Virus record (IMG/VR): IMGVR_UViG_3300027901_000001
Direction: 5' to 3' (one strand)
Source: a virus
Length of the DNA: 64,000 nucleotides
A program made the translations under genes and the position numbers. Positions within the stretch are counted from its first letter, which is position 1. The number at the start of each line of letters is the position of its first letter. Positions 50,358 through 62,366 of the stretch are shown one piece after another. Under the pieces are notes generated by a model. That model searched no databases, was not told the origin of the DNA, and saw only the letters and a list, made by a program, of their open reading frames with translations.

Positions 50358-51329
50358 TTATTTCTGCGCCAGCAGCTTCGCCCGGTGAGCGTCGAACTTC
50401 CTCTCCGGCACAAATCTCAGCTTGTACTTCTTGTCGAGACCGTACTTGTCAATTAGGTCGATCACCGTGAGAAATGATTTGGGAAAACGATAACCCTGAG
50501 CCGCCAGCTCCAGCTCCTTTGTCGGCAGGGTTCCTTCCCGATGCTTCTTAATGACCTCGGGCGTCACCCTCTCATCTTTCAGCACAAGCAGCCTCGTTTT
50601 GGGGGGCACCCTGAAGGTATCCCCCTTCATTATCCACTCCCCCTCGTCCTTGTAGATGTCCCCGATCCTCTTCAGGGTCCTATGGGCGATACGATAAAAA
50701 TCCTTGATCGGAATCTTCTGGAGAAGGTCAAGGTAAAATTCTCCGATATCCCTCTTCTTCGCTATCTCGATAGAAGCGTTCCGAATCCATTTGGCCAAAT
50801 CCCTGATGGAATTTATCCGAGGGTTTTGGCCCCGAAATAACTCCCCGTATTTCGACCGGCTCAAGTACCCATAGTCTATCGCGTGCCCGATCTTGGCCAA
50901 CGGCGAGCCCATCGGCTCCTTCTGGAGAAACATCCGAAAGTAATCCATGAAATTCATCATCACGCCGTCACGGCCAAGCCCGCTCTCGGGATCTTTCTGC
51001 CATATCCGGTAGAGGCAAATGAGGTTCTTGGACACCAGGTACTCCGGCTTTTCGTAAAGTACCCTGGTCAACTTGTTCAGCTTCGCCACGTCCTTGCCGG
51101 GCATCACCAGCATCGCGTTACGCGCCACGCCCAGAAATTGCCTCACAATTCGCCTGTCGCCGGAGATGCCCTTCACCCCTTTCAAGACTCCGGATGCCAA
51201 CTGCTTCACCTGGTCCTCGTTGATATCGTCGATGTCGGTCACCAGCCAGAAGACGCCAGGCACGTCGGCGGGACCGTAGCTGCGCTCGATGAGAAAGAGC
51301 GCCCAGTCAAGCTGCTCGGAAATTCTCAT
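50358..51329 (-). CDS. Hypothetical protein with leader-like N-terminus (MRISEQLDWAL)
   Basis: 323-aa ORF with SD GGAG. Confidence 0.65.
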   Translation of the reverse strand: MRISEQLDWALFLIERSYGPADVPGVFWLVTDIDDINEDQVKQLASGVLKGVKGISGDRRIVRQFLGVARNAMLVMPGKDVAKLNKLTRVLYEKPEYLVSKNLICLYRIWQKDPESGLGRDGVMMNFMDYFRMFLQKEPMGSPLAKIGHAIDYGYLSRSKYGELFRGQNPRINSIRDLAKWIRNASIEIAKKRDIGEFYLDLLQKIPIKDFYRIAHRTLKRIGDIYKDEGEWIMKGDTFRVPPKTRLLVLKDERVTPEVIKKHREGTLPTKELELAAQGYRFPKSFLTVIDLIDKYGLDKKYKLRFVPERKFDAHRAKLLAQK

Positions 51330-51402
51330 CCATACTCTCCAGCTTCAAACGACCCGGTAAGATATTCCGCGATGAGCATGGCCCCAGAGTATCACCCGCC
51401 CA

Positions 51403-51418
51403 CGTTTCACGTGAAACA
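51403..51418. promoter_or_regulatory. parS: parS centromere site (15/16)
   Basis: CGTTTCACGTGAAACA, intergenic, at the end of the tRNA array. Confidence 0.82.
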
Positions 51419-51420
51419 TT

Positions 51421-51497
51421 CGGCACGGGCGGCTGGGGTCGAACCAACACCAACTCGGGTCAAAGCCGAGCGCCTCTACCAATTGGGCTACGCCCGT
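51421..51497 (-). tRNA. trnQ: tRNA-Gln(UUG)
   Basis: Cloverleaf; loop CTTTGAC. Confidence 0.92.
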
Positions 51498-51498
51498 G

Positions 51499-51575
51499 TA
51501 GCACTCCCACAGGGACTCGAACCCCGATTCCCGGCTCCGGAGGCCGGTGCTCTAATCCACTTGAGCTATGGGAGC
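51499..51575 (-). tRNA. trnR: tRNA-Arg(CCG)
   Basis: Cloverleaf; loop CTCCGGA. Confidence 0.92.
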
Positions 51576-51576
51576 C

Positions 51577-51652
51577 TGGCACCCGCGAGAGGACTCGAAC
51601 CTCCAGTGACCGGTTCCGTAGACCGGCGCTCGTCCAATTGAGCTTCGCGGGC
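51577..51652 (-). tRNA. trnR: tRNA-Arg(ACG)
   Basis: Cloverleaf; loop CTACGGA; CCA encoded. Confidence 0.93.
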
Positions 51653-51653
51653 C

Positions 51654-51727
51654 TGGATCGGGTGGCTGGAATCGAACCAGCGTTGACGGCGTCAGAGACC
51701 GTTGCCCTACCACTGGGCCACACCCGA
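51654..51727 (-). tRNA. trnQ: tRNA-Gln(CUG)
   Basis: Cloverleaf; loop CTCTGAC; CCA. Confidence 0.93.
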
Positions 51728-51728
51728 A

Positions 51729-51805
51729 TGGCGTCCCATCCCGGATTTGAACCGGGGTCTCCGGATTGAGGGTCCGACGGCCTGGGCCAGCTAGCCGAAT
51801 GGGAC
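51729..51805 (-). tRNA. trnE: tRNA-Glu(CUC)
   Basis: Cloverleaf; loop CCCTCAA (C33); CCA. Confidence 0.88.
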
Positions 51806-51806
51806 T

Positions 51807-51881
51807 TGGTGCACCTGGTGGGAATCGAACCCTACATCCCCGGCGTGAAAGACCGGTCGCCTACCATTAGCAGACAGGTGC
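51807..51881 (-). tRNA. trnE: tRNA-Glu(UUC)
   Basis: Cloverleaf; loop CTTTCAC; CCA. Confidence 0.92.
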
Positions 51882-51897
51882 AAGGGAGCGTTTCGAG

Positions 51898-51957
51898 TTA
51901 GCGGCGCTGCCGCTCTCGTTCTCGCTCTACCTCGCGCTGTCGTTGCCGTCGGAACAT
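51898..51957 (-). CDS. Leader peptide for the Glu/Gln/Arg tRNA block (MFRRQRQREVERERERQRR)
   Basis: 16 of 19 codons are E/Q/R; all Arg codons are CGN. Confidence 0.85.
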   Translation of the reverse strand: MFRRQRQREVERERERQRR

Positions 51958-51966
51958 GATGCTTTT

Positions 51967-51995
51967 ACCTTGCGGCCGACCGCAGGAATTGTCAA
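51967..51995 (-). promoter_or_regulatory. Sigma70-like promoter ahead of the E/Q/R leader
   Basis: TTGACA-N17-CAAGGT. Confidence 0.5.
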
Positions 51996-51997
51996 CC

Positions 51998-52074
51998 CGG
52001 AGTCGGTAGTGGGAATCGAACCCACGGCCTCCTGCTTACCATGCAGGCGCTCTACCAGCTTGAGCCATACCGAC
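51998..52074 (-). tRNA. trnT: tRNA-Thr(GGU)
   Basis: Cloverleaf; loop ATGGTAA. Confidence 0.92.
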
Positions 52075-52077
52075 AAA

Positions 52078-52091
52078 GGCAGTCGACTGCC
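52078..52091. repeat. 14-bp palindrome, copy 4
   Basis: Exact; spacer between two Thr tRNAs. Confidence 0.85.
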
Positions 52092-52168
52092 CGGAGCTGG
52101 TGACAGGAATCGAACCTGCGTCCTTCCGCTTACAAGGCGGATGCTCTGCCAACGCGAGCTTCACCAGC
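52092..52168 (-). tRNA. trnT: tRNA-Thr(UGU)
   Basis: Cloverleaf; loop CTTGTAA. Confidence 0.92.
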
Positions 52169-52169
52169 G

Positions 52170-52244
52170 CGGAGCCCCCGGTGGGAGTCGAACCCACGCC
52201 TCCTGAGTACGAAACAGGTGTGCTGCCGTTAGCACCACGGGGAC
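52170..52244 (-). tRNA. trnT: tRNA-Thr(CGU)
   Basis: Cloverleaf; loop TTCGTAC. Confidence 0.88.
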
Positions 52245-52378
52245 AGGGAAGCGGGCGTTACCCGCCTGCTGGTCCCTGTCGTGGTGCAGTGGTGGAACCG
52301 ACAGGACTCGAACCTGCAACCTTCTGGCTGCCAGCCAGACGCTCTCCCGAGTTGAGCTACGGACCCAAACACTTTCAT
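52229..52378 (-). promoter_or_regulatory. Thr-sensing leader ORF reading through tRNA-Ala(GGC)
   Basis: ATG 52378 with SD; 50 codons; spacer codons ACC ACG ACA GGG ACC ... ACG; stops inside tRNA-Thr(CGU). Confidence 0.65.
52290..52366 (-). tRNA. trnA: tRNA-Ala(GGC)
   Basis: Cloverleaf; loop CTGGCAG; G3:U70; CCA. Confidence 0.93.
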
Positions 52379-52426
52379 CTCCGTTCCTCTCCGGACATAA
52401 GACGATTTTTTATGTCCGATTATCCT

Positions 52427-52503
52427 CAGTGGACCCGGTGGGATTTGAACCCACGACCCTCTGCTTGCAAGGCAGACGCTCTCCCTGGCTGAGCTACAAG
52501 CCC
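52427..52503 (-). tRNA. trnA: tRNA-Ala(UGC)
   Basis: Cloverleaf; loop CTTGCAA. Confidence 0.9.
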
Positions 52504-52562
52504 ATGTGCCGTTTTACCGGCGTTGTCCTCTTCTATGTCTCCGACCTCCGATTATCCCTCAA

Positions 52563-52598
52563 AAAAAATGCCCCGTTTTTCACCGCGACGGCGGGGCC
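52563..52598 (-). terminator. Rho-independent terminator-like element between tRNA-Val and tRNA-Ala(UGC)
   Basis: GCCCCG ... CGGGGC stem followed by A and an 8-T run on the minus strand. Confidence 0.55.
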
Positions 52599-52638
52599 AC
52601 CCGCCGAAACCAAACCCCGCTGAAAAGCGTGAGTCCGA

Positions 52639-52714
52639 TGGTACGGGGAAGTGGAGTTGAACCACTGGCCTCCTGCTTGTAAGACAGGCGCTCTCCCAGT
52701 TGAGCTATCCCCGC
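52639..52714 (-). tRNA. trnV: tRNA-Val(UAC)
   Basis: Cloverleaf; loop CTTACAA; CCA. Confidence 0.92.
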
Positions 52715-52715
52715 A

Positions 52716-52790
52716 TAGTGCGAGCGCCGGGAATCGAACCCGGATTTCCGCCGTGGCGGGGCGACATGCTGCCGGTTGCATCACACTCGC
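52716..52790 (-). tRNA. trnG: tRNA-Gly(GCC)
   Basis: Cloverleaf; loop CCGCCAC (C33). Confidence 0.88.
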
Positions 52791-52792
52791 AT

Positions 52793-52866
52793 CGGAGAGC
52801 CGGGTGGGAGTCGAACCCAAACCTCGACGGGGTTGCAACCCGCCTCCATCCCGGATGGACCGGCTC
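52793..52866 (-). tRNA. trnC: tRNA-Cys(GCA)
   Basis: Cloverleaf; loop TTGCAAC; U73. Confidence 0.88.
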
Positions 52867-52916
52867 ACAAGTCCGCCCGAGCTTCTACAGAGTGGGTCTG
52901 GTTTGCGTTCGTACAT
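52867..52916 (-). promoter_or_regulatory. Cys leader (MYERKPDPLCRSSGGL...)
   Basis: SD GAGGAG plus ATG; one TGT codon; reads into tRNA-Cys. Confidence 0.5.
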
Positions 52917-52927
52917 GAGAGTCTCCT

Positions 52928-53000
52928 CGGCAGGCCAGGTGGGAATCGAACCCACTACAGTCGGATTTGGAATCCGACCGGCTACCTCAGCCTCTGACCT
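52928..53000 (-). tRNA. trnW: tRNA-Trp(CCA)
   Basis: Cloverleaf; loop TTCCAAA. Confidence 0.88.
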
Positions 53001-53023
53001 ATCTCTTACTTGGCGGGCCTGCC

Positions 53024-53146
53024 TTATCGCCAAGCGAGCACGGCCAGAGGCTCCATACCGATCGCGGCAGTCGCCTCCGCACACACGACGGCCGCGCAAC
53101 CAGCGGTTGCTGTCGCGGCGACCAGGGTCGTGTAGCGCATACGCAT
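53024..53146 (-). CDS. Leader peptide for the Trp/Cys/Gly/Val/Ala/Thr tRNA block
   Basis: MRMRYTTLVAATATAGCAAVVCAEATAAIGMEPLAVLAWR; 26 of 40 residues are T/A/V/G/C/W; SD AAGGTGAGG. Confidence 0.8.
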   Translation of the reverse strand: MRMRYTTLVAATATAGCAAVVCAEATAAIGMEPLAVLAWR

Positions 53147-53152
53147 ATCCTC

Positions 53153-53180
53153 ACCTTAAGGGATCTACTGCCGTTGTCAA
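53153..53180 (-). promoter_or_regulatory. Sigma70-like promoter ahead of the W/C/G/V/A/T leader
   Basis: TTGACA-N16-TAAGGT. Confidence 0.6.
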
Positions 53181-53182
53181 GC

Positions 53183-53272
53183 CGGTGCGGGTAGCAGGAC
53201 TCGAACCTGCACGGCCACAAGGACCAGCGGATTTTAAGTCCGCCATGACTACCAAGATTCCATCATACCCGC
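53183..53272 (-). tRNA. trnL: tRNA-Leu(UAA)
   Basis: Long variable arm; loop CTTAAAA. Confidence 0.92.
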
Positions 53273-53273
53273 G

Positions 53274-53366
53274 TAGCGGAAGGGACAGGGATCGAACCTG
53301 CAAGGGACGCAATGCCTCACCCGGATTCCAACCGGGCTCCATCGCCAACCGTTGGATTGCCCTTCC
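53274..53366 (-). tRNA. trnS: tRNA-Ser(GGA)
   Basis: Long variable arm; loop TTGGAAT. Confidence 0.9.
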
Positions 53367-53367
53367 T

Positions 53368-53455
53368 TGGTGCGAGTGAGAGGATTTGCACCTCCACGCC
53401 CATAAAGGGCACCTGGGTTTGAGCCAGGCTCGTCTGCTGATTCCGACACACTCGC
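53368..53455 (-). tRNA. trnL: tRNA-Leu(CAA)
   Basis: Long variable arm; loop CTCAAAC; CCA. Confidence 0.92.
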
Positions 53456-53456
53456 G

Positions 53457-53543
53457 TGGCGGAGGACGGAGGGCTCGATCCCCAGACCTTTCGGTCCGCA
53501 CTGCTTTCGAGACAGGCTTGATCCCACGACCAATTCATCCTCC
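53457..53543 (-). tRNA. trnS: tRNA-Ser(CGA)
   Basis: Long variable arm; loop CTCGAAA; CCA. Confidence 0.88.
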
Positions 53544-53544
53544 T

Positions 53545-53632
53545 TGGCGGAAAGCAGAGGTCCTGAGCCCCACACCTCTCGGTGCACACCGCTTTCAAGG
53601 CGGGTCCGGCGCGCCTGTCCGGTTTGCCTTCC
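53545..53632 (-). tRNA. trnS: tRNA-Ser(UGA)
   Basis: Long variable arm; loop CTTGAAA; CCA; atypical T-loop. Confidence 0.85.
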
Positions 53633-53633
53633 G

Positions 53634-53724
53634 TGGTACAGGTGACTGGACTCGAACCAGCACGGGGCTCTCGCCCCACCGGATCCTGAATCCGGCGTGT
53701 CTACCAAGATTCCACCACACCTGC
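53634..53724 (-). tRNA. trnL: tRNA-Leu(CAG)
   Basis: Long variable arm; loop TTCAGGA; CCA. Confidence 0.92.
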
Positions 53725-53725
53725 A

Positions 53726-53812
53726 TAGTACGGGTGAAGGGACTTGCACCCCCACGGCCCGAAGGCCACTGGATCCTTAGTCCAGCGCGTCTGCTGATTC
53801 CGCCACACCCGC
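53726..53812 (-). tRNA. trnL: tRNA-Leu(AAG), rare A34 anticodon
   Basis: Long variable arm; stem CTGGA/TCCAG, loop CTAAGGA. Confidence 0.88.
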
Positions 53813-53854
53813 GTGCGCCAGCCCTCTATGAGCTGCTGCGGGCGCTGGGCTGGA

Positions 53855-53932
53855 TTACTGGACAGACGGGTGCGCCCGCAGCTCGATTAAAAGCAACGAT
53901 GACAGGGATAGGCTGTGGACGCAGTAAAACAT
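53855..53932 (-). CDS. Leader peptide for the Leu/Ser tRNA block (MFYCVHSLSLSSLLLIELRAHPSVQ)
   Basis: Nine consecutive, all different Leu/Ser codons: AGC CTA TCC CTG TCA TCG TTG CTT TTA; downstream of a promoter-like element. Confidence 0.85.
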   Translation of the reverse strand: MFYCVHSLSLSSLLLIELRAHPSVQ

Positions 53933-53974
53933 GGTTCTTCCGTACTTCGATTCCCGGCGGCACCCCCTCAGAGG

Positions 53975-54002
53975 ATCTTAAGCGTAGAGGGGAAAAAGTC
54001 AA
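53975..54002 (-). promoter_or_regulatory. Sigma70-like promoter ahead of the Leu/Ser leader
   Basis: TTGACT-N16-TAAGAT. Confidence 0.6.
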
Positions 54003-54003
54003 C

Positions 54004-54159
54004 CTACTCTTGGAGCTGCTCTTTTTCAGATATCCGCGCCTTGCGCTCTTGCCAGGTCTGAGACTTTAAGCCTCCTTTGGCTCCGTTCTTCTTCCACGGT
54101 TTGCACATCAGACAACCGGCCCGCCTGCTTTTCGGACGCCTTCTCTTGTGATGGCCCAC
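54004..54159 (-). CDS. Small basic CxxC protein (MGHHKRRRPKSRRAGCLMCKPWKK...)
   Basis: 51-aa ORF, GTG start with SD GGAGGT; below the ORF-track cutoff. Confidence 0.55.
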   Translation of the reverse strand: MGHHKRRRPKSRRAGCLMCKPWKKNGAKGGLKSQTWQERKARISEKEQLQE

Positions 54160-54204
54160 GGTCACCTCCAGCGGCCTCCCGCCGCGTGTAAGGGATTTCA
54201 GCCA

Positions 54205-54516
54205 TCACAGCCTCCGTTTCTTCCGTTTCAGGGTGTACCGGGCCTCCACGGGCCGGTCCTTCACCCACTCAATGTACCGCCAAACCTTGGGGCTCGCCAA
54301 GAGCTTCTTCAGAGTGTTGTACTGGGTGCGCAGCTCCTGGTTCGTGAACATGAGGTGAATCTGGTCGCCACACTGATGGCAGACCTTGATCCCCTCCTTA
54401 GTACGCCGCCGCCGCTTGCCCGGCTCTAGGTGATGGAACACCAGATGGTCCGTCTCCCTGGAGCAGAGCGCGCAGCACAGCTTGTGCTTATTTTCCGGAC
54501 AGGCAGAGGGACGCAT
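54205..54516 (-). CDS. Small HNH-like endonuclease
   Basis: CALC...HHL...CHQC..QIH. Confidence 0.6.
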   Translation of the reverse strand: MRPSACPENKHKLCCALCSRETDHLVFHHLEPGKRRRRTKEGIKVCHQCGDQIHLMFTNQELRTQYNTLKKLLASPKVWRYIEWVKDRPVEARYTLKRKKRRL

Positions 54517-55450
54517 ACAGCACTTCGTCCCCCTCACCAACGAACTGGCCCGACAGCAACCTGCTGGCCACCGTCCGCAGGGAGAAGCCGCCCATCTTTT
54601 CGTCCGGCCGGGCAGCCGCCTCAAGCTGGAGTGCCTGGGTTTCGCCAACCACGGTGCTGGTCGTCTCCTGGTCCTTCTCGGTTGCCTCCTTCAGAGCCGC
54701 CTGGAGCCCCTCCAGGGACCGTTCTCCCACGGTAAGGGCCGACCTAGTAGCCGGAGGCAGCGGGTTGCCCTTGGCCACCTGGAGCGACAGGGAGCCGTAG
54801 CACACCCGAATCAGAGGCACCCACAGACGCTCCCAGAAGGCCACGGAGGGAGCGCGCTCGACGCCCACCACCTTGCCGCCTACCAGGATGATGCTGCCCA
54901 CCTGCCGGGGCACCAGCTCGAACTCGGCCACGAACTCATCGAGCTGCTTCTTGAAGTGCCGCAAGAAGTCCGCGATGTTGCCGCTGCCGGACAGGCCCAC
55001 GGACCGCTTGAAAGCGCGGATGAAGGTCCACAGCCGATCGTACTTATCCTCCAGCCGAGTCGCCAGCGCCTGAGCACGCAGCGCCGCCGGAAGGATGATC
55101 ATGCTGCCCTGCTGATCACGGATAAGCCCGCTCTGGGTCTCCTGGATGCAGCACGCCCGGTCCATGTCCCGCTCGCTCTTGGGAGCCATGAGCGCGCCCC
55201 CGCACACCGCGTGGTCCTGAGCCGCGTCCTTCACGCACCAGCCCGCGCCGGGCGACACAATAGAAGGCCGGTCGGCCGTGTTCCGAAGGTGCACGGAACC
55301 GTACTCGTGGGTCGAGGCGTGGAAATCCGGCGGAGCGAACCGATCGTCGTCTTCGTCGCTCAGCAGCGGAATCACCTCCATCTGTCCGACGCTCTGGCGA
55401 GCACCGGTCCTGGTTCCTTTAAGGATCTGTTCTACGGTCAGTGTAGGCAT
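54488..55450 (-). CDS. ARPP/DUF6569-like domain protein
   Basis: 'QSVGQMEVIPL', 'AAQDHAV', 'ACCIQETQSG'; coupled to the vWA gene; family call from memory of the motif pattern. Confidence 0.5.
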   Translation of the reverse strand: MPTLTVEQILKGTRTGARQSVGQMEVIPLLSDEDDDRFAPPDFHASTHEYGSVHLRNTADRPSIVSPGAGWCVKDAAQDHAVCGGALMAPKSERDMDRACCIQETQSGLIRDQQGSMIILPAALRAQALATRLEDKYDRLWTFIRAFKRSVGLSGSGNIADFLRHFKKQLDEFVAEFELVPRQVGSIILVGGKVVGVERAPSVAFWERLWVPLIRVCYGSLSLQVAKGNPLPPATRSALTVGERSLEGLQAALKEATEKDQETTSTVVGETQALQLEAAARPDEKMGGFSLRTVASRLLSGQFVGEGDEVLYASLCLSGK

Positions 55451-57036
55451 TACACACCTCCTCTCCCGAGCACCGGGAGCGCCCTGCCGATCAGGACGTT
55501 GATACCGCGCACCGGATCCGCCTCCAGCATCCCCCGGATGAACGTCAGCCCGATGGACGCCGGATCCTTCACCGGCATGGTGGAAGCCAGCTTGGGAGCC
55601 AGCTCCCGGACACTTCCAACCTCAGCCGCGAAAACCGGGTTGATGTGGTAGACCGGCGTTTCGATGCCGATCTCGCGTGCCTGGCCGAGCACCTCTGCAA
55701 ACCGTCCGGCCGGTCGGTTCTCATACCCATCGCTGAGCACAAAGATAACATCCGGCCCATCGGCCAGCAGCTCCAGGAGTCCCGAGGCCAGCTCGGTATC
55801 TCCGGACGGCCGGGGAGACTCGGCCCCCAGATTACCTCCACGGGTAACCTCAAAGGCGCGCTTCGTGGCTGTCCGCCTCAGCATATCGCGCATGGCCAGC
55901 ACGGCCGCCATCGGCCGCAGCGGCTGGGTCTTGTCCCCGGCCATCGACTTCGAGGCATCCACCAGGATGCCAACGTTCTCGTAGCTCACCGGGAACGCCT
56001 TGGCCGCCTTCCGAGCCTTGGCCAGAAGAGCCTCCTCGATCTCTCCAGTCATGCCCATCTCGAAGGCGTACAGGTAAAGCCGGACCGCATCGTAGTCCTT
56101 CGGATCCATCTCGACCTTGACCCCAGCCTTCTTCGCCTGACGCTGCACCGTCATCTTCTGCTTCTTGCTGAGAGTGCCTTCCTTCGCAGCGTGCTTCAGC
56201 ACCTCATCCTTGGAGACCTCCTGGTGGTAGGTGCTCCGCAGGCCCTCCAGAACCTCCGGCGGCAGTCGACTGCCTTCCGCCAGGTCCTTCTTGGCCGCCT
56301 CCCGAGCCTTGAGCAGGGGGGTCTTCCAGGTCCGCGTGCCACCGAGCACGAAGCACACGTACTCGTACACGTCGGACGGCTTGCCCTGGTGGTACTTGTC
56401 GATGCTGTCGCGGAGAATCTTCTTCTCCTTGTCCGTCCAGGTCCGGGCGCTCCGGCTCAGGATCGTCCGGATCACCGTGGTGCGCTTCTGGCCCCAGGCG
56501 TGGGTCAGGGCCTCGCTCATCTTGCTGCGGTACTTCACGGCCCACCAGTCCAACTTCCTGGAGCTGAGGATGGTCCGCAGCATCAGCTTCCGGGTCCGGG
56601 CGTTGTTGGCCTTCGGCGTCTCCTGGGTGCCCACGCGGAATCCCTGGAAGAGCTTGAACACCATCTGCGGAGGCATCTCGCGCATGTAGTGGTAGAGCAC
56701 CTCGCGCTCCATCTTGGCGTCGAGCAGGCCATCGGTCTGGCTGTTACGCGGGGTACCGAGCAGATTCTTGGTGCCGATCTGCACGGCGCGCTCCATCACG
56801 CCCGGCAGCACCAACAGCAAGGCGTACAGGTCACGGTCGAGCTTCATCATGGCCTGGTGCGCAGCCAGCTCCGCCTTCTGCTGCTCCTGGCGCGTGTTGT
56901 AGTGGGTAGCCCGGCCAAACGAGGTCGAGGCCGTGTCCAGGAAATGGCACACGATCTCCCCCGCCTTCTTCGCAGTCACACGCTGCGGAGGCTTCCACCT
57001 GATTTCATCGCTGTCCCTGGTAACGATGTCCGGCAT
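55450..57036 (-). CDS. TROVE/Ro60-like helical domain plus vWA (MIDAS) protein
   Basis: 528 aa; MIDAS 'VDASKSM' and 'VLSDGYEN'; helical N-terminal two-thirds with 'PPEVLEGL'; size and architecture as in Ro60. Confidence 0.65.
   Translation of the reverse strand: MPDIVTRDSDEIRWKPPQRVTAKKAGEIVCHFLDTASTSFGRATHYNTRQEQQKAELAAHQAMMKLDRDLYALLLVLPGVMERAVQIGTKNLLGTPRNSQTDGLLDAKMEREVLYHYMREMPPQMVFKLFQGFRVGTQETPKANNARTRKLMLRTILSSRKLDWWAVKYRSKMSEALTHAWGQKRTTVIRTILSRSARTWTDKEKKILRDSIDKYHQGKPSDVYEYVCFVLGGTRTWKTPLLKAREAAKKDLAEGSRLPPEVLEGLRSTYHQEVSKDEVLKHAAKEGTLSKKQKMTVQRQAKKAGVKVEMDPKDYDAVRLYLYAFEMGMTGEIEEALLAKARKAAKAFPVSYENVGILVDASKSMAGDKTQPLRPMAAVLAMRDMLRRTATKRAFEVTRGGNLGAESPRPSGDTELASGLLELLADGPDVIFVLSDGYENRPAGRFAEVLGQAREIGIETPVYHINPVFAAEVGSVRELAPKLASTMPVKDPASIGLTFIRGMLEADPVRGINVLIGRALPVLGRGGV
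56261..56274. repeat. 14-bp palindrome, copy 5
   Basis: Exact; inside the TROVE-like gene. Confidence 0.8.
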
Positions 57037-57057
57037 GGTTGTACCTCCAGAAAAATA

Positions 57058-57189
57058 CCGGGGGTAAGTTGCTCGTCATTTGTCTCGCGCCTTTACCAGT
57101 TAGGCCACGCCCCCGCTTGGTGGGGGCGGCAGGACTCGAACCTGCAATCTCGGGATTCCATATCCGAAAATGACGCGACAGTTCCCCGG
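57058..57189 (-). ncRNA. Y-RNA-like RNA with a circularly permuted tRNA-like domain
   Basis: Outer stem CCGGGG/CCCCGG plus GCGUCAUUU/AAAUGACG encloses, in order, a T-arm (GCAGG-TTCGAGT-CCTGC), a loop-closed acceptor stem (CGCCCCC-ACCAAGC-GGGGGCG) and a D-arm (GCC-TAACTGGTAAA-GGC); directly upstream of the TROVE-like gene. Confidence 0.75.
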
Positions 57190-57199
57190 ATAAATTAAG

Positions 57200-57271
57200 C
57201 CCCGGTCACGGTGACTGTCGCGGAGTAAAGGGGTTAACCAAAATCCTAAAACGACAGCGCAGTTCCCGAGG
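57200..57271 (-). ncRNA. Short GAACU-motif hairpin RNA
   Basis: CCUCGG-GAACU-gcgCUGUCG ... CGACAG ... CCGGGG. Confidence 0.5.
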
Positions 57272-57285
57272 TCTAATCTTTCGCC

Positions 57286-57442
57286 TGTTCGTAGCGACCG
57301 GCCTGAGACAGGGGGGTTGTCAGGTTTTTTGAAAGAAAACAGGAATCGGACCTGTACCTTCTGTTGGTAAAACAGACGTGCTACCGTTGCACTATCTCTT
57401 CCGAAACTAGCAACCTAGTTCTCAGGTCCGTCGCTACGAACA
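57286..57442 (-). ncRNA. Long-stem RNA enclosing a degenerate tRNA-like cloverleaf
   Basis: TGTTCGTAGCGAC/GTCGCTACGAACA and CCTGAGA/TCTCAGG stems; the inner 57331..57402 has D-, anticodon-like (TCTGT/ACAGA) and T-like arms with a poor acceptor stem. Confidence 0.6.
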
Positions 57443-57480
57443 AGCTCCTTTCATTCATACCCTCCTTCCGAGTATCTCCA

Positions 57481-57508
57481 TTATTAGCCTATGTTTTCCG
57501 TTTGTCAA
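57481..57508 (-). promoter_or_regulatory. Sigma70-like promoter ahead of the Y-like RNA/TROVE-like operon
   Basis: TTGACA-N16-TAATAA(T). Confidence 0.55.
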
Positions 57509-57527
57509 ATCCTGTCTTGATTTTTTC

Positions 57528-57613
57528 TGGCGGAAGGCAGAGGTCCCGACCCTCAGACCCGGAGGCCCCAACGGCTTAGCAGGCCGCGCCTGTCCCCGAC
57601 AGGTTTACCTTCC
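57528..57613 (-). tRNA. trnS: tRNA-Ser(GCU)
   Basis: Long variable arm; loop CTGCTAA; CCA. Confidence 0.87.
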
Positions 57614-57662
57614 CAAGGTTCCTGCTCGGGCGCGTACTGCTCTCTGTTGCTCTGCCTCTCAT
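57614..57662 (-). promoter_or_regulatory. Ser(GCU) leader (MRGRATESSTRPSRNL...)
   Basis: AGC AGT ... AGC and no TCN codons. Confidence 0.7.
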
Positions 57663-57671
57663 CGCTTTCCT

Positions 57672-57745
57672 CGGTGGGTCTGAAGGGAATCGAACCCCTG
57701 TAGTCCGGTTAAGAGCCGGATGCTCGGCCACTGAGCGACAGACCC
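57672..57745 (-). tRNA. trnK: tRNA-Lys(CUU)
   Basis: Cloverleaf; loop CTCTTAA. Confidence 0.92.
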
Positions 57746-57809
57746 TCGCGTGCGCGCACCTCCGCGTGCGCGTGCGCTTGAGCCTGGTCTGTCGATTTAC
57801 CGAAATCAT
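57746..57809 (-). promoter_or_regulatory. Lys(CUU) leader (MISVNRQTRLKR...)
   Basis: SD AGGAG; single Lys codon is AAG; CGACAGACC pairs with the tRNA 5' strand. Confidence 0.65.
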
Positions 57810-57820
57810 CGTGAAACTCC

Positions 57821-57895
57821 TGGTGGGCGCGGTGGGAATCGAACCCACGGATTCCGGGTTAAAAGCCCGGTACCCTGCCATCGGGTGCCACGCCC
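57821..57895 (-). tRNA. trnK: tRNA-Lys(UUU)
   Basis: Cloverleaf; loop CTTTTAA; CCA. Confidence 0.9.
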
Positions 57896-57933
57896 TCGAT
57901 GGGACGCGGCGATCGTTTCAGTCTCCTATTCAT
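57896..57933 (-). promoter_or_regulatory. Lys(UUU) leader (MNRRLKRSPRPI...)
   Basis: Single Lys codon is AAA; GCCGCGTCC pairs with the tRNA 5' GGGCGTGGC. Confidence 0.62.
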
Positions 57934-58008
57934 AGCTCCAGGGGCAGGCGTCGAACCCGCATAGTCTCGGTTAACAGCCGAGCGCCTTACCAGTTAGGCT
58001 ACCCTGGA
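57933..58008 (-). tRNA. trnN: tRNA-Asn(GUU)
   Basis: Cloverleaf; loop CTGTTAA. Confidence 0.92.
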
Positions 58009-58053
58009 AGAACACCGCTGGGGCCGACCGTTGGCCGACCCGGTGGTATTCAT
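58009..58053 (-). promoter_or_regulatory. Asn leader (MNTTGSANGRPQRCS...)
   Basis: AAT and AAC codons. Confidence 0.55.
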
Positions 58054-58058
58054 TCCAG

Positions 58059-58134
58059 TGGCAGGAGTGGAAGGACTCGAACCCTCATCACCGGGGTAGA
58101 AGCCCGGTGCTCTCATCCGTTGAGCTACACTCCC
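58059..58134 (-). tRNA. trnR: tRNA-Arg(UCU)
   Basis: Cloverleaf; loop CTTCTAC; CCA. Confidence 0.92.
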
Positions 58135-58136
58135 TC

Positions 58137-58211
58137 GGGCGGGAGCGGCGGGAGTCGAACCCGCACAGACCAGCTTAGGAGGCCGGTACCCATCCATTAG
58201 GCGTCGCTCCC
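58137..58211 (-). tRNA. trnR: tRNA-Arg(CCU)
   Basis: Cloverleaf; loop CTCCTAA. Confidence 0.88.
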
Positions 58212-58260
58212 AGATGCTGTCCTGGAATCTTCGCCTGTATCTGTGCTCGATCCGTTCCAT
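58212..58260 (-). promoter_or_regulatory. Arg(CCU/UCU) leader (MERIEHRYRRRFQDSI...)
   Basis: CGG AGA AGG CGA AGA; contains both AGG and AGA. Confidence 0.72.
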
Positions 58261-58271
58261 CTTCTTCTTCC

Positions 58272-58348
58272 TGGTAGGCCCGGTCGGATTTGAACCGACG
58301 ACCACGCCCTTATCGGGGGCGTGCTCTACCTATCTGAGCTACGAGCCC
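58272..58348 (-). tRNA. trnI: tRNA-Ile(GAU)
   Basis: Cloverleaf; loop CCGATAA (C33); CCA. Confidence 0.9.
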
Positions 58349-58398
58349 ATCACCCTTGCGCGCCGGTCTCAACCGGCCCGGTAATGAGCACAGCCTGT

Positions 58399-58911
58399 TT
58401 ACGCAACACTCGCATACGTTCTCCTGTTCACAATGTAAGATACGGTGGTCTTTGGAACCCCATACTTCTCCATCAGCTCTTTATACGACATGCCCCGATC
58501 CCGATCTTTTCTCAGGTTTCGCACCTCATCTTCGGAAACCTTGCTTCTAACCCTCCCTGCCTTCCGAGCATCCAAGGTCCTCTTTCTTTTGTCCTTATCT
58601 AACGTGTTCTGAGAATGCGTCCCGATTGCGATGTTCCCTTTGCTATTGTTCAGTGGGTTTCCGTCCAAGTGTCGCGCCTCCACTCCTTCAGCAAACGCAT
58701 CTTCTCCGAACCACTGATAGGCCGCCAACAGATGGACGGCGACATTATATTCTACCCCTTTGTCCTTTATCTTAAATGACAAGTACCCTTTTCTGTCGTC
58801 GTAAAGACTCCTTTTCTTGCCTGACGCTGCTGTTACCTCTCCTGCCTCTGAAACCCTGTATCCTTTACGAAAAGCAATCAACACTGCGGTAATCTTTTTT
58901 GACCGCCTCAT
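58399..58911 (-). CDS. HNH homing endonuclease with C-terminal HTH, inserted in the tRNA array
   Basis: 'VHLLAAY', 'ARHLDGNPLNNSKGNI...THSQN'; AT-rich. Confidence 0.85.
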   Translation of the reverse strand: MRRSKKITAVLIAFRKGYRVSEAGEVTAASGKKRSLYDDRKGYLSFKIKDKGVEYNVAVHLLAAYQWFGEDAFAEGVEARHLDGNPLNNSKGNIAIGTHSQNTLDKDKRKRTLDARKAGRVRSKVSEDEVRNLRKDRDRGMSYKELMEKYGVPKTTVSYIVNRRTYASVA

Positions 58912-58912
58912 T

Positions 58913-58991
58913 TTGCGCTCCGGGGCAGGATCGAACTGCCGACACCTCGGGCTTCAACCGAGTGCTCTACCAACGCCTGAGCTACCGGAGC
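58913..58991 (-). tRNA. trnF: tRNA-Phe(GAA)
   Basis: Cloverleaf; loop TTGAAGC. Confidence 0.9.
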
Positions 58992-59048
58992 AGAATCGCT
59001 ACGGCAGCCCGTAAAGCCCTCATCGTATGTCCTCTTCCTGTCCATCAT
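58992..59048 (-). promoter_or_regulatory. Phe leader (MMDRKRTYDEGFTGCRSDS...)
   Basis: TTT followed by GGCTGCCGTAGC, which pairs 11/12 with the tRNA 5' end; start uncertain. Confidence 0.58.
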
Positions 59049-59053
59049 CTCCT

Positions 59054-59127
59054 CGGTGCGGGCAAAGGGAATCGAACCCATTTCTCCAGGGTGGAAACCT
59101 GGCATCTCACCGTTGGACCGTACCCGC
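59054..59127 (-). tRNA. trnG: tRNA-Gly(UCC)
   Basis: Cloverleaf; loop TTTCCAC. Confidence 0.9.
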
Positions 59128-59165
59128 ATGGCCAGCAGCAGGCTCTCCCTGCACGGTCCCTCCTC
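59128..59165 (-). promoter_or_regulatory. Gly(UCC) leader
   Basis: In-frame GGA GGA GGG ACC GTG CAG GGA; GGACCGTGC pairs with tRNA GTACGGTCC. Confidence 0.62.
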
Positions 59166-59243
59166 CGGTCCACCCGGTCGGACTCGAACCGATCATCGCT
59201 CGCTTATAGGGCGAGTGCTCTACGCAGATTGAGCTACGGGTGG
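59166..59243 (-). tRNA. trnI: tRNA-Ile(UAU), rare anticodon
   Basis: Cloverleaf; stem CTCGC/GCGAG, loop CCTATAA; A73. Confidence 0.85.
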
Positions 59244-59298
59244 TCACCGTAACGGGCGCGACCCGTGCGCCTATCTGCCTATCCGCTCGCCTTGCCAT
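59244..59298 (-). promoter_or_regulatory. Ile(UAU) leader (MARRADRQIGARV...)
   Basis: The only Ile codon is ATA; SD-like GGAGG upstream. Confidence 0.62.
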
Positions 59299-59539
59299 GC
59301 CTCAGTCCCTCCATGTACCACTGGTATTCGTGACCTCTGACCGTTCCTCCGCACTTCTTACAACGATACTGCGCCCTGAAATGTAATCCGTCGTTTTCCT
59401 TTTCAAATTCGTGCGGCCCTTCACACTCCCTGAGCTTCTTGTGGTTGGCCTTCACCTCTTCCCAGATTTGATTGATTTCCTTTTTCTTCAGCCCCGATAC
59501 GTTCGCTAGCGCGTCTAGTGCCTTGTCAACCATGCTCAC
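59279..59539 (-). CDS. Small Zn-finger hypothetical protein
   Basis: C...H.F...Y.CKKCG. Confidence 0.6.
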   Translation of the reverse strand: MSMVDKALDALANVSGLKKKEINQIWEEVKANHKKLRECEGPHEFEKENDGLHFRAQYRCKKCGGTVRGHEYQWYMEGLRHGKASG

Positions 59540-59540
59540 C

Positions 59541-59629
59541 TGGTGCGCCGGGAGGGAATCGAACCCCCATAGCCCGTCAGGACACCTGGGTTACAGCCAG
59601 GCCCCCGTACCAATTCGAGGAACCGACGC
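59541..59629 (-). tRNA. trnY: tRNA-Tyr(GUA)
   Basis: Long variable arm; loop CTGTAAC; CCA. Confidence 0.9.
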
Positions 59630-59691
59630 ATACCGGTTTCCGCCGCCTCTCGCGGCCCGGTATAGCGCCTGTCTGTCCTGCACCCTGTCAT
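59630..59691 (-). promoter_or_regulatory. Tyr leader (MTGCRTDRRYTGPREAAETG...)
   Basis: SD AGGAG; one TAT codon; alternative hairpins. Confidence 0.5.
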
Positions 59692-59721
59692 CGTTTCCAT
59701 CTCCTGTTCCGCAACAAGCAA

Positions 59722-59879
59722 GTAAACCGAGGCAAGGGCTCTCGTTGGTTTTGGCTTTTGAGTTACCCCGGCGATAAAAAAGGCTTGCGCCTAGCGCCGG
59801 GGGCTGGACTCGAACCAGCAACGTTCAGTCTATCAAACTGATACTCTTCCTATAACAACGCGATAGTTCCTCGGTTTAC
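59722..59879 (-). ncRNA. Second Y-RNA-like RNA with permuted T-arm/acceptor domain
   Basis: 11-bp outer stem GTAAACCGAGG/CCTCGGTTTAC, GAACU, CGTTG/CAACG; T-arm GCTGG-TTCGAGT-CCAGC followed by the CCCCGGCG/CGCCGGGG stem. Confidence 0.68.
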
Positions 59880-59907
59880 CTCCTTGCTGCGAGCTGAAAC
59901 AAACAGG

Positions 59908-60034
59908 TGATCTGAGACAGGTTGAACGTCAGTTTTGGTAAAGGGGGTCTGCACGACCTACACGGACTTATGCGTGTCCGTCATTGGTTTTCAGCCAATG
60001 GCATTCCTAGACTGGCGGTACAGTTCTCAGATCA
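59908..60034 (-). ncRNA. GAACU-motif long-stem RNA, paralogue of 57286..57442
   Basis: TGATCTGAGA/TCTCAGATCA stem; shares CTGAGAACT ... CTGAC ... CCTGTCTCAG with 57286..57442. Confidence 0.55.
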
Positions 60035-60058
60035 ACTCTTTCTTCCAACACCTCCTTT

Positions 60059-60136
60059 TGGGCTGGCCGACGGGACTCGAACCCGCAAAAAACACGGCCC
60101 ACAACCGTGTGCCTCGTCCGGCTGGCTCCGACCAGC
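60059..60136 (-). tRNA. trnH: tRNA-His(GUG)
   Basis: 8-bp acceptor stem with G-1:C73; loop TTGTGGG; CCA. Confidence 0.9.
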
Positions 60137-60174
60137 ATAATATGGCCGGAGCCCGTATGTCTTTCGCCCTTCAT
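60137..60174 (-). promoter_or_regulatory. His leader (MKGERHTGSGHI...)
   Basis: Two CAT codons flank GGCTCCGGCCA, which pairs 11 bp with tRNA TGGTCGGAGCC. Confidence 0.75.
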
Positions 60175-60184
60175 CTTCCTTCTC

Positions 60185-60258
60185 CAGCGCCCCGTACGGG
60201 ACTCGAACCCGTCTCATTGGATCGACAGTCCAACTGCATCCCCGATGCACAACGAGGC
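60185..60258 (-). tRNA. trnD: tRNA-Asp(GUC)
   Basis: Cloverleaf; loop CTGTCGA; G73. Confidence 0.87.
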
Positions 60259-60296
60259 ATCAGATCGTCAGCCGGTTCTGTATCTATCCAGGTCAT
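60259..60296 (-). promoter_or_regulatory. Asp leader (MTWIDTEPADDL...)
   Basis: SD AGGAG; GAT, GAC, GAT in 12 codons. Confidence 0.68.
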
Positions 60297-60307
60297 CGTC
60301 TTCTCCT

Positions 60308-60386
60308 TGGTAGCGGGAGCGGGATTTGAACCCGCGATCTTCGGGTTATGAGCCCAACGGGGACGACCAGACTCCCCTATCCCGCA
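60308..60386 (-). tRNA. trnfM: Initiator tRNA-fMet(CAU)
   Basis: GGG/CCC anticodon stem, 1:72 mismatch, loop CTCATAA; CCA. Confidence 0.9.
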
Positions 60387-60394
60387 GCAATCCT

Positions 60395-60471
60395 TGGTCC
60401 GGGCGGTGGGATTTGAACCCACGACTACGTGGTCCCAAGCCACGTGGGCTACCAGCCTGCCCTACACCCGG
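60395..60471 (-). tRNA. trnP: tRNA-Pro(UGG)
   Basis: C1:G72, A73; loop CTTGGGA; CCA. Confidence 0.92.
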
Positions 60472-60537
60472 TCGTGTTAACGGATCCGTGCCCCGAACGC
60501 ACGGTCGACCGGGTTGTGGTGGGTACCAGTAAAACAT
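60472..60537 (-). promoter_or_regulatory. Pro leader (MFYWYPPQPGRP...)
   Basis: SD AGGAGG; CCA CCA, 5 Pro in 22 codons; ACCCGGTCG pairs with CGACCGGGT at the tRNA 5' end. Confidence 0.75.
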
Positions 60538-60757
60538 CTTGCCTTCCTCCTTCTAGCCCACCAGGAACGCAAGATTTCGTGGCGGGCTCTTTATGACCCG
60601 CCTGGATATGGACGGGTCAGAAGCGAAAAATATCACTCCCGTTATGCCTATACATCGGCTTGGGTATGTCTTTTCTGCTTGGCATCTCCGTCTCTTAGGT
60701 GCCCCTCGGGACTCGAACTAATCCGAGCCCGAAGGCCCCGCTCTTTTGAAGGTGATC

Positions 60758-61093
60758 CTATCCGGAAAGATTGTCAAGCGCCCCCCTCAACAAAAGAGGC
60801 AGATTGCTGACGATTCTTCTTGCCGACGATCCGAGTGCCAGTGCAGTGGCTTCATCACCGACATCCGGCTCACGAAAAAGCGACGCCGGGCAGCCGTTCG
60901 CCTGGTCCCGGAGCGCCAGCAGCGCCTTCTCGTCCGGCACCTGGAGGAGCACCAGGTTGTTCGATCCTTCGTACCAGGCGCGGTCCTCTTCGGGGTGCTC
61001 GGCCGAAAAAAGCCGCAGGGCATGGCACGCCTGGGCCGCCTGGAGACCCGGCTTCAGGTCAGCCCGGACCACGATATAGAGCTTTGCATCAAT
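60758..61093 (-). CDS. Peptidyl-tRNA hydrolase, PTH2-like (start codon ambiguous)
   Basis: 'KLYIVVRADLKPGLQAAQACHA', 'LVLLQV' and 'FREPD.G...TALA'; the in-frame region upstream of GTG 61072 has no ATG. Confidence 0.75.
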   Translation of the reverse strand: MDAKLYIVVRADLKPGLQAAQACHALRLFSAEHPEEDRAWYEGSNNLVLLQVPDEKALLALRDQANGCPASLFREPDVGDEATALALGSSARRIVSNLPLLLRGALDNLSG

Positions 61094-61159
61094 GGGACTG
61101 TTTCATTTCAACACCTCTTTGGTTTGATGGCTAAATTAAGCCTTTCTCATGGCTTAAAT

Positions 61160-61245
61160 TGGTCAGCCGGGAGGACTCGAACCCCATACTCCTGACCCGT
61201 ACCGCGAATCGGGGTCAGTTGCTCTACCAGTTGAGCTACCGGCCG
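61160..61245 (-). ncRNA. tRNA-like RNA (Pro-like body) with a 17-nt region in place of the 7-nt anticodon loop
   Basis: Normal acceptor, D and T arms plus CCA; CTGAC-[CCCGATTCGCGGTACGG]-GTCAG. Confidence 0.75.
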
Positions 61246-61355
61246 ATAAGTCATGTGGGAGGAGCCATCCACTCGGGATCTACCGCGAATCAACCCCAAG
61301 TTGCCCAGGACCCTTCCGGGCTGGCAGTCCCTACTCAGTATCCTGGACACCCACA

Positions 61356-61442
61356 TGGCACGCGGGGATGGACTCGAACCACCGACCTCCGAGCAAGCTC
61401 GGTGCTCTTCCTGGAGCAAAGCTCTCTCTGAGCTACCCGCGT
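61356..61442 (-). ncRNA. tRNA-like RNA with a CUUG tetraloop instead of an anticodon loop and an enlarged D-loop
   Basis: ACGCGGG/CCCGCGT acceptor, G73, CCA; CCGAG-CTTG-CTCGG; 22-nt D-loop containing a GAGC-TTT-GCTC hairpin. Confidence 0.75.
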
Positions 61443-61574
61443 ATGGCGCGTCCCCTGCCCGTTGCTCATCTTCCGTGGAGAGGATGGACTGGACGACAGG
61501 GGGCGCAAAAAAGGCCGGTTTGTTTTCCGCCCTGATAATAATGAGAGCGGGGGACAAAACCGGCTCGGAAAACC

Positions 61575-62349: not shown

Positions 62350-62366
62350 CGGTCGACACCCGGATT

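Follow-up and report, generated by a model that had tools for sequence, protein, structure and literature searches.

Leader hairpins in a phage tRNA array: a probable per-tRNA maturation switch opened by ribosome stalling

Introduction

Why phages carry large sets of tRNA genes is a long-standing question, to which one current answer is that they replace tRNAs destroyed by host defence (PMC12409363). A 64,000-nt stretch of the viral record IMGVR_UViG_3300027901_000001 (hereafter the window), which belongs to a complete 191.6-kb genome of an uncultured phage with terminal repeats and with portal, helicase and HNH genes, raises the question of how such tRNAs might be controlled. Its minus strand carries about 40 tRNA genes from 51.4 to 61.7 kb, and spacers of at least 40 nt before a tRNA usually contain a short open reading frame (ORF) with a codon read by that tRNA. 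A preliminary description of this array had proposed that each leader misfolds its pre-tRNA by pairing with the tRNA 5′ end, and that a ribosome stalled at the cognate codon lets the cloverleaf form, giving a switch of tRNA maturation rather than of termination. Here we find that this pairing, which we refer to as the lock, is real and selected, and we consider it probable that it operates as a per-tRNA maturation switch opened by ribosome stalling, each tRNA probably being released only when the cell is short of it.

Pairing between leaders and their tRNAs

Leader and tRNA sequences folded with ViennaRNA form a long, often compound hairpin whose 5′ arm lies at or beside the cognate codon (the sensing codon) and whose 3′ arm is the start of the tRNA. 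All units are on the minus strand, and in what follows positive numbers denote tRNA positions and negative numbers leader positions. The sequestered partner lies within −8 to +29, with three types of target: the acceptor 5′ strand as far as +13 (His, Phe, Trp, both Lys, Gly, Leu and Ile-UAU), the RNase P junction (Tyr, Asn, Ile-GAU, Pro, Thr and Arg) and the D-arm (Asp, Cys and Ser).

Summed over the window, forcing the acceptor stem costs 118.8 kcal/mol with the tRNAs' own leaders against 50.8 ± 9.6 with permuted leaders (z 7.1); only tRNA nucleotides 1–15 show the excess complementarity. For a stricter target, a cleavable cloverleaf consisting of the full cloverleaf with four leader bases left unpaired, the cost averages 9.4 kcal/mol with own and 4.9 with swapped leaders (z 8.2), and randomising synonymous codons while keeping the peptide abolishes the excess (147 against 65 ± 10, z 7.9). 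Complementarity is therefore far greater for own than for mismatched leader–tRNA pairs, and the cloverleaf, which costs 4.7–14 kcal/mol in the full precursors of the window, does not dominate their folding. Single units vary, several being not significant alone and many borderline against their own shuffles, and Ala-UGC and Glu-UUC show no excess over permuted leaders in the acceptor-stem test.

Conservation and covariation in related phages

Homologues of a gene in the middle of the array identified four syntenic arrays (L102, L106, L101 and L107), in which leader peptides and sensing codons are conserved; DNA identity of L102 to L106 and L101 over the array is 66–82%. As negative controls we used the arrays of two more distant relatives recognised by their portal genes (G003 and G009) and the main array of a 398-kb phage, G025. 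Comparison of own with swapped leaders gave z scores of 6.4 (L102), 8.3 (L106), 3.5 (L101) and 4.9 (L107), against 0.3, 0.0 and −0.9 in the three ordinary control arrays.

Replacement of tRNA genes has been frequent in the syntenic arrays, and the lock changes with them. Native pairs are tighter than orthologous chimeras by 0.4, 1.6 and 2.1 kcal/mol at 0–1, 2–4 and 5 or more differences in tRNA nucleotides 1–14, and the leader tracks the diverged tRNA 5′ sequence in 13 of 16 families (p 2e-4). In the His helix, where four pairs have changed on both sides, 85% of cells pair as opposed to 29–46% in slid registers; the Phe helix behaves similarly, more weakly, and in the relatives' Lys-UUU units the helix has shifted onto the leader tail and covaries there. 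A count of 113 two-sided changes was discarded because it mixed register shifts with true compensation.

G025 contains, beside its ordinary array, a separate cassette of Pro, Asp, Tyr, Ile, Phe and Ile-GAU units (L149, at G025:C1:355000-372500), and this arrangement suggests that units may have spread horizontally. The Pro-to-Ile cassette, which is of the window type, scored z 2.6. The Lys-UUU unit stands alone in G025 and G003, and the G003 and G009 arrays are otherwise without the system. Cultured phages gave isolated tRNA matches only, and searches with flanking proteins for further loci yielded none, or contigs stopping short of the array. The tRNA-Lys motif and the Ser and Leu leader motifs found no new arrays in IMG/VR and GTDB genomes, and hence give no sign that cellular genomes contain the system, nor any clue to the host.

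Sensing codons and translation of the leaders

Seventeen tRNA genes of the window are preceded by short leader ORFs, and the cognate codon is found in 16 of them, 23–48 nt before the tRNA; across all units of the five phages the distance is 22–48 nt (median −31). The codon is in frame in 16/16, 16/16, 16/16, 10/10 and 7/7 leaders, compared with 20–31% for mismatched pairs, a test that is partly circular because frames were fixed from start codons and conserved codons; the conservation of the codons across phages is the stronger evidence. CAT precedes tRNA-His, GAT tRNA-Asp, TAT tRNA-Tyr and TTT tRNA-Phe, and the codons are split by isoacceptor, with ATA before Ile(UAU) and ATT before Ile(GAU), AAA before Lys(UUU) and AAG before Lys(CUU). 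The sensing codon remains ATA where the tRNA gene changes its anticodon from TAT to CAT (a lysidine-type Ile tRNA). In all seven G34-read two-codon boxes (His, Asp, Tyr, Phe, Ile, Cys and Asn) the sensing codon ends in U, compared with 37–50% of such codons genome-wide, and these wobble codons should stall ribosomes more readily.

If the hairpins were constitutive aids to processing or folding, or DNA palindromes derived from tRNA ends, the leader ORFs would be incidental. GC-rich sequence does fold easily, and the lack of individual significance in some units would fit such an origin; it would leave unexplained why every leader has a cognate, isoacceptor-matched codon at a fixed distance, conserved in five phages, why ATA persists across the anticodon switch and why frames are kept across indels. 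Moreover, the helices contain G-U pairs, and in 15 of 17 families the RNA strand folds more stably than its complement, a figure to which generic G-U bias contributes. We regard this explanation as very unlikely.

The Shine–Dalgarno sites at the leaders and the conservation of frame indicate that the leaders are probably translated. Leaders that lack a start codon are always in open frame with an ORF coming through the upstream tRNA. Frame continuity extends from Ile to Gly in four phages, from His to Tyr and from Phe to Ile-GAU in three, and from Cys through Gly, Val and Ala to Thr in three, and spacer changes and indels in these through-tRNA ORFs preserve the frame, whereas leaders with their own ATG lie in arbitrary frames. 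Genes inserted between units (L106 4306–4590, L101 246–533, L107 ~2214–2475 and window 58399–58911) end in or overlap the start of a sensing leader, which places the sensing codon at the tail end of a longer protein.

That many ORFs traverse tRNA bodies could also mean that there is no thermodynamic lock or that polarity is reversed: the cloverleaf would win by tertiary folding, whose energy the folding model leaves out, and control would be steric only, elongating ribosomes unfolding the tRNA and stalled ones halting the traffic. tRNA-Gly(GCC) and tRNA-Val, which have no lock yet lie within the conserved Cys ORF, would suit such control. In-frame Gly and Val codons occur in the T-arm of the preceding tRNA, 25–33 nt upstream of these two genes; as sensors they are suggestive only. 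Steric control gives no account of locks that follow the sequence of each tRNA, nor of the retention of locks in the Trp, Ile-GAU and Lys-UUU units, whose leaders often end ahead of the tRNA. As the whole explanation it is highly improbable; it is probably a second layer.

Effect of a stalled ribosome

The alternative helices selected by ribosome position were computed by footprint-masked folding, with the footprint modelled as a mask from −15 to +14 around the sensing codon. A footprint on the sensing codon lowered the median cloverleaf cost from 8.1 to 1.8 kcal/mol, with a drop of at least 3 in 56 of 65 units, and when 2–5 kcal/mol is allowed for tertiary structure, 39–51 units are off without the ribosome and on with it. 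In 61 of 64 units the lock falls at least partly under the footprint, to one side of the codon or the other. The cost profile drops between three and one codons before the sensing codon and then remains low for a few codons, while a ribosome a few codons past the sensing codon begins to cover the cleavage site itself. Because the cost stays low over several codons, the position of the sensing codon is suitable but not sharply singled out. The 5′ arm of the lock is transcribed some 65 nt ahead of the acceptor 3′ strand, and the lock would therefore be favoured kinetically.

Organisation of the individual units

All the pairings listed in the preliminary description were recovered where it had placed them, several of them with a revised register. 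In the Pro unit (60395–60537; ATG at 60537), the lock does follow directly after CCA CCA (60522–60517), and its true span (60514–60506 on −3 to +6 of tRNA-Pro(UGG), from 60471) is the RNase P site; it is kept in L102, L106 and G025. The Asp unit (60187–60296; ATG 60296, GAT 60284–60282, tRNA-Asp(GUC) from 60258) has locks at 60275–60269 and 60264–60259, which pair with the D-arm (+13 to +18) and with +23 to +29 in the anticodon stem. The 11 bp described for His hold: in this unit (60059–60174; ATG 60174, CAT 60159–60157) the lock at 60153–60143 pairs with +2 to +12 of tRNA-His(GUG), from 60135. The Tyr unit (59541–59700; ATG 59700, tRNA-Tyr(GUA) from 59629) has its TAT (59664–59662) inside a 12-bp lock at 59669–59657 on −7 to +5, as also happens with the sensing codons of the Asn, Ile-GAU and Thr units. 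In the Ile-AUA unit (59167–59298; ATG 59298, ATA 59274–59272, tRNA-Ile(UAU) from 59243), the 6 bp noted earlier (59266–59261 with +3 to +8) are accompanied by flanking helices, the locks together covering 59278–59255, and the ORF continues through the tRNA into the leader of the Gly unit. The latter (59054–59166), which has no ATG of its own, carries GGA GGA GGG at 59166–59158 and the expected lock at 59159–59151 on +5 to +13 of tRNA-Gly(UCC), from 59127. The Phe lock (59010–58997 on −1 to +13, one mismatch) follows TTT (59015–59013) as claimed, in a unit at 58915–59048 with ATG at 59048 and tRNA-Phe(GAA) from 58991.

The next units include two locks that had been omitted, those of Ile-GAU and Arg-CCU. 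In the Ile-GAU unit (58272–58415; ATG 58415, tRNA-Ile(GAU) from 58348), ATT (58385–58383) lies inside the lock (58389–58380, on −6 to +4). The Arg unit (58059–58260; ATG 58260, AGA 58242–58240, AGG 58236–58234) has locks at 58236–58222 on −2 to +4 and +9 to +13 of tRNA-Arg(CCU), from 58211, and its ORF passes through this gene and tRNA-Arg(UCU), from 58134, into the Asn leader. In the Asn unit (57935–58053; ATG 58053, tRNA-Asn(GUU) from 58008) the lock at 58051–58045 contains AAT (58050–58048) and pairs with −8 to −2. Both Lys pairings are as described: in the Lys-UUU unit (57821–57933; ATG 57933, tRNA from 57895) AAA (57918–57916) precedes the lock (57910–57902 on +1 to +9), and in the Lys-CUU unit (57673–57809; ATG 57809, tRNA from 57745) AAG (57779–57777) comes 6 nt after the end of the lock (57794–57786 on +2 to +10). 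The place of the Ser-GCU pairing also stands, and the leader in fact pairs with +3 to +7 and with the D-arm (+11 to +18) through locks at 57634–57615 (unit 57528–57662; ATG 57662, AGC AGT 57641–57636, tRNA from 57613).

Further along the array, the Trp unit (52929–53146) has a 40-codon leader from 53146, a lock at 53052–53042 on +2 to +12 that comprises 11 bp where 10 had been counted, TGG at 53032–53030 and a stop before tRNA-Trp, from 53000. The Cys unit (52533–52916; ATG 52916, TGT 52889–52887) has locks at 52881–52870 on +6 to +17, and its frame stays open through tRNA-Cys, tRNA-Gly(GCC) and tRNA-Val(UAC). In the Ala-Thr unit (52171–52378; ATG 52378), the ORF runs through tRNA-Ala(GGC), and the Thr codons themselves (ACC ACG ACA, 52285–52277) form the lock (52287–52273) on tRNA-Thr(CGU), from 52244; the 13-bp register proposed for it is an alternative only, the computed fold preferring 7 bp on +7 to +13 plus 8 bp across the cleavage site (−5 to +3). 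The pairings of Asp, Asn, Cys and Tyr had been called weaker or unclear; they are not weak, and the ambiguity is resolved because their locks aim at the cleavage site or the D-arm.

At 52505–52635 (minus strand) the Cys-to-Thr ORF is broken up by an additional tRNA-Ala(UGC) unit, a competing hairpin and a hairpin that resembles a terminator and has a T run; the Ala leader has no ATG and has ATA after a Shine–Dalgarno-like site, and the interruption is missing from L102, L106 and L101. A short hairpin and TTT immediately before tRNA-Thr(GGU) are conserved (window 52075–52092, minus strand; L102 10445–10461). Elements resembling whole or partial tRNAs, with odd anticodon arms, lie at 61163–61245, 61356–61442, 61576–61652, 57060–57150, 59780–59860 and 60690–60730 (all minus strand), and L102 has at ~12100–12167 a tRNA-Glu-like gene without an anticodon arm.

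Block leaders and the question of transcription

The promoters of the array are sigma70-like. One of them (53975–54002) precedes the Leu/Ser block (53184–53932), which contains seven Leu/Ser tRNAs behind a 25-codon leader (53932–53855) with an anti-lock near 53884–53872 and a lock at 53854–53838 on +1 to +14 of tRNA-Leu(AAG); the 8 bp already described (53845–53838 with +1 to +8) form its extendable core. The leader contains a conserved three-segment switch, in which the cloverleaf costs 1–5 kcal/mol with the ribosome on the Leu/Ser run, 10–13 just after it and little again at the stop codon. The Glu/Gln/Arg block (51422–51957), which lies outside the positions covered by the preliminary description, has a 19-codon leader from 51957 rich in codons for these three amino acids, a hairpin over −8 to +13 of tRNA-Glu(UUC) and six tRNAs. 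By eye, promoter-like sites at 53146–53180 and 51957–51995 (minus strand) crowd the start codons of the Trp and Glu blocks, whose leaders may be leaderless mRNAs.

Such blocks invite a reading as transcription attenuators, in which the hairpins would be pause or Rho-loading signals and ribosome position would decide whether polymerase enters the tRNA. The stop of block leaders before the first tRNA, their listing of codons for the whole block and the rise in cost as the ribosome leaves the Leu/Ser run all speak for this. No leader, however, has an intrinsic terminator (hairpin and U tract), the hairpins ending in the tRNA instead. Moreover, the stretch from 60471 to 57528 holds 14 tRNA genes one after another, in units packed 40–75 nt apart, so that distal tRNAs would depend on all upstream codons; serial terminators are ill suited to this arrangement because all upstream switches would need to be open at once. 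Ribosome stalling normally uncouples translation and favours Rho termination, which would give the wrong polarity. Attenuation is thus quite unlikely as the gated event, and the serial arrangement together with the lack of leader terminators points to a local, independent output. The same absence of terminators, the pairing that follows the tRNA in four relatives and the opening of most units by the footprint uphold the preliminary description in its preference for maturation over termination, in which RNase P would release the tRNA on stalling.

The regulated step and neighbouring genes

The locks converge on −8 to +13, the region of the RNase P determinants, and in the Tyr, Asn, Ile-GAU, Pro, Thr and Arg units, as in the relatives' Lys-UUU units, the hairpin lies over the proximal 5′ leader or cleavage site (−8 to +5). 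An engineered hairpin that hides the 5′ leader of a pre-tRNA blocks RNase P both in cells and in vitro (PMC7897497). The phage genome lacks a type A RNase P RNA gene, and we therefore assume that the host enzyme would act.

The product of a gene in the middle of the array (55450–57036, minus strand; 528 amino acids) has a Ro60/TROVE-vWA-like fold, the best Foldseek hits all being Ro60 (E 6e-7, TM ~0.4). It is followed by an ARPP-1 gene (54488–55450, minus strand), and each of the four relatives has the pair in the same position. Since misfolded non-coding RNA is what Ro60 binds, a link between the Ro60-like protein and locked precursors is possible. Before its gene lies an apparent tRNA-Val(TAC) (57330–57402, minus strand) with an A/U-rich acceptor stem, in which the anticodon triplets of the relatives are GAT, TGC, TGC and TGG; it is a tRNA-like RNA rather than a true Val tRNA, and perhaps equivalent to a Y RNA. 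A gene for a PTH2-type peptidyl-tRNA hydrolase (60758–61072, minus strand) lies just upstream of the array, and its product could recycle peptidyl-tRNA from ribosomes left on cut leaders.

With the same sensor and polarity, the gated event could instead be destruction, RNase III cutting long helices or quality control, possibly with the Ro60-like protein, removing misfolded precursors unless a stalled ribosome protects the tRNA. This is compatible with every sequence test, and the compound helices of 15–25 bp in Thr, Trp, Lys-CUU, Tyr and Ile-UAU as well as the RNA-binding preference of Ro60 fit it. Yet several locks are short (9 bp in Lys-UUU, 7 bp on the junction in Asn), their common feature is the RNase P determinant and not helix length, and a relative with the same Ro60-like gene has no nearby tRNA array. 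We judge destruction unlikely; like the transcription-level alternative, it shares its sensor with the maturation switch.

Discussion

In the mechanism that we propose, the array would be transcribed as long precursors that double as mRNAs, and ribosomes would enter each leader ORF at its own Shine–Dalgarno site and ATG or by reading through the upstream tRNA. When the host tRNA is plentiful, the ribosome would pass the single sensing codon, and the leader hairpin, with the RNase P site, the acceptor 5′ strand or the D-arm as its 3′ arm, would close first and close again behind each passing ribosome, so that the locked tRNA would not be cut out and the precursor would decay. When the isoacceptor is missing, for instance after cleavage by a host anticodon nuclease, the ribosome would stall with the codon in its A site, 22–48 nt before the tRNA, covering the 5′ arm of the hairpin and leaving the cleavage site free. 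The cloverleaf could then fold, host RNase P would free the phage tRNA and the stall would be relieved. When the PARIS nuclease removes one tRNA, ribosomes stall at AAA and ACA; rescue from PARIS is provided by the phage tRNAs Lys-UUU, Thr-UGU and Asn (PMC12409363). Sensing through a single codon is better matched to the almost complete loss of an isoacceptor than to mild starvation. With somewhat more reserve than for the single switch, we think it likely that the array as a whole is a natural feedback system. Ribosomes would translate the pre-tRNAs, each of which its own leader would keep locked until a ribosome stalls at the codon read by that tRNA, and with successive ORFs linked across tRNA bodies a single transcript would deliver only the isoacceptor that is lacking.

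Several observations weigh against this interpretation. All the support is computed; from it we infer that the leaders are translated and that ribosomes stall there, that RNase P is the enzyme under control, that locked precursors decay and that the purpose is anti-defence. Only six related phages contribute, and pair-level covariation against shuffles (8–10 of 500 for His, 40–52 of 500 for Phe) is modest and comes from four sequences. ViennaRNA omits the tertiary stabilisation of tRNA, and a bonus of 5 kcal/mol leaves 44 of 65 units still switching. The footprint acts over a broad range (about −2 to +2 codons), a 30-nt mask placed anywhere on a 40–60-nt leader would open the lock, and in the window Gly-UCC barely switches (4.7 to 4.0 kcal/mol) and Tyr remains at 5.9. 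A purely local switch does not fully explain the Leu/Ser and Glu/Gln/Arg leaders or the 40-codon Trp leader, each of which carries codons for an entire block of which the first tRNA alone has a lock. Elongating ribosomes had also been proposed to run into the tRNA; frame continuity agrees with this, but read-through of tRNA bodies, at 57% against 27% in other frames, also reaches 51% in control arrays, and we rejected it as stand-alone evidence.

Leader-peptide transcription attenuators such as trpL, hisL, pheL, thrL, ilvGMEDA and pheM/pheST share with the phage units a short ORF with regulatory codons, the choice of helices by ribosome position and, for the blocks, multivalent leaders. The phage units differ in lacking a terminator and antiterminator, in mostly using one sensing codon rather than a run, in targeting tRNA genes that their ORFs may cross and in a regulated helix that contains the product RNA. 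As in the translational attenuators ermCL and cat, a stalled ribosome would cover the 5′ arm of a hairpin and free what the 3′ arm hid, with the difference that a hungry codon replaces the drug and that the tRNA 5′ end and RNase P site are exposed rather than a ribosome-binding site; an ermC/cat-type sequestered ribosome-binding site of a downstream protein gene was not found in the units, where the sequestered partner is the tRNA. T-box riboswitches likewise sense tRNA status codon-specifically through a leader RNA, but bind the tRNA directly and without translation, and an Rfam scan of 44000–64000 found tRNAs only and no T-box or other family. A parallel in design is a synthetic RNase P riboswitch, in which a sequestor hairpin of 11–15 bp hides the 5′ leader of a pre-tRNA and blocks RNase P until opened (PMC7897497). 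That switch is engineered, responds to theophylline and controls one tRNA, whereas the phage system is natural and ribosome-sensing, comprises 17 units and in many of them invades the acceptor stem or D-arm. The Anabaena trn operon, a stress-induced array of 26 tRNA genes under the repressor TrcR (PMC8421152, PMC10272220), is similarly made on demand under translational stress, with a protein repressor for the whole operon; leader peptides and per-tRNA locks are not reported for it (PMC8421152). The authors of the synthetic switch noted that such regulation of RNase P had not been demonstrated before (PMC7897497), and we found no natural precedent in the literature searched, whose coverage mostly excludes subscription journals.

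The mechanism is a well-supported inference. If true, it would be the first natural regulated RNase P switch, a counterpart to the engineered one, and ribosome-mediated attenuation would gain RNA maturation as a third output in addition to termination and translation initiation. Phage tRNA genes would be under selection as coding sequence, and units of 60–150 nt would offer ready-made reporters of isoacceptor depletion. For the phages, the array would be a sensor that reports, per isoacceptor, which tRNA host defence has destroyed; their tRNAs would stay hidden until needed, and a lock governed by codon stalling would make the replacement idea testable tRNA by tRNA.

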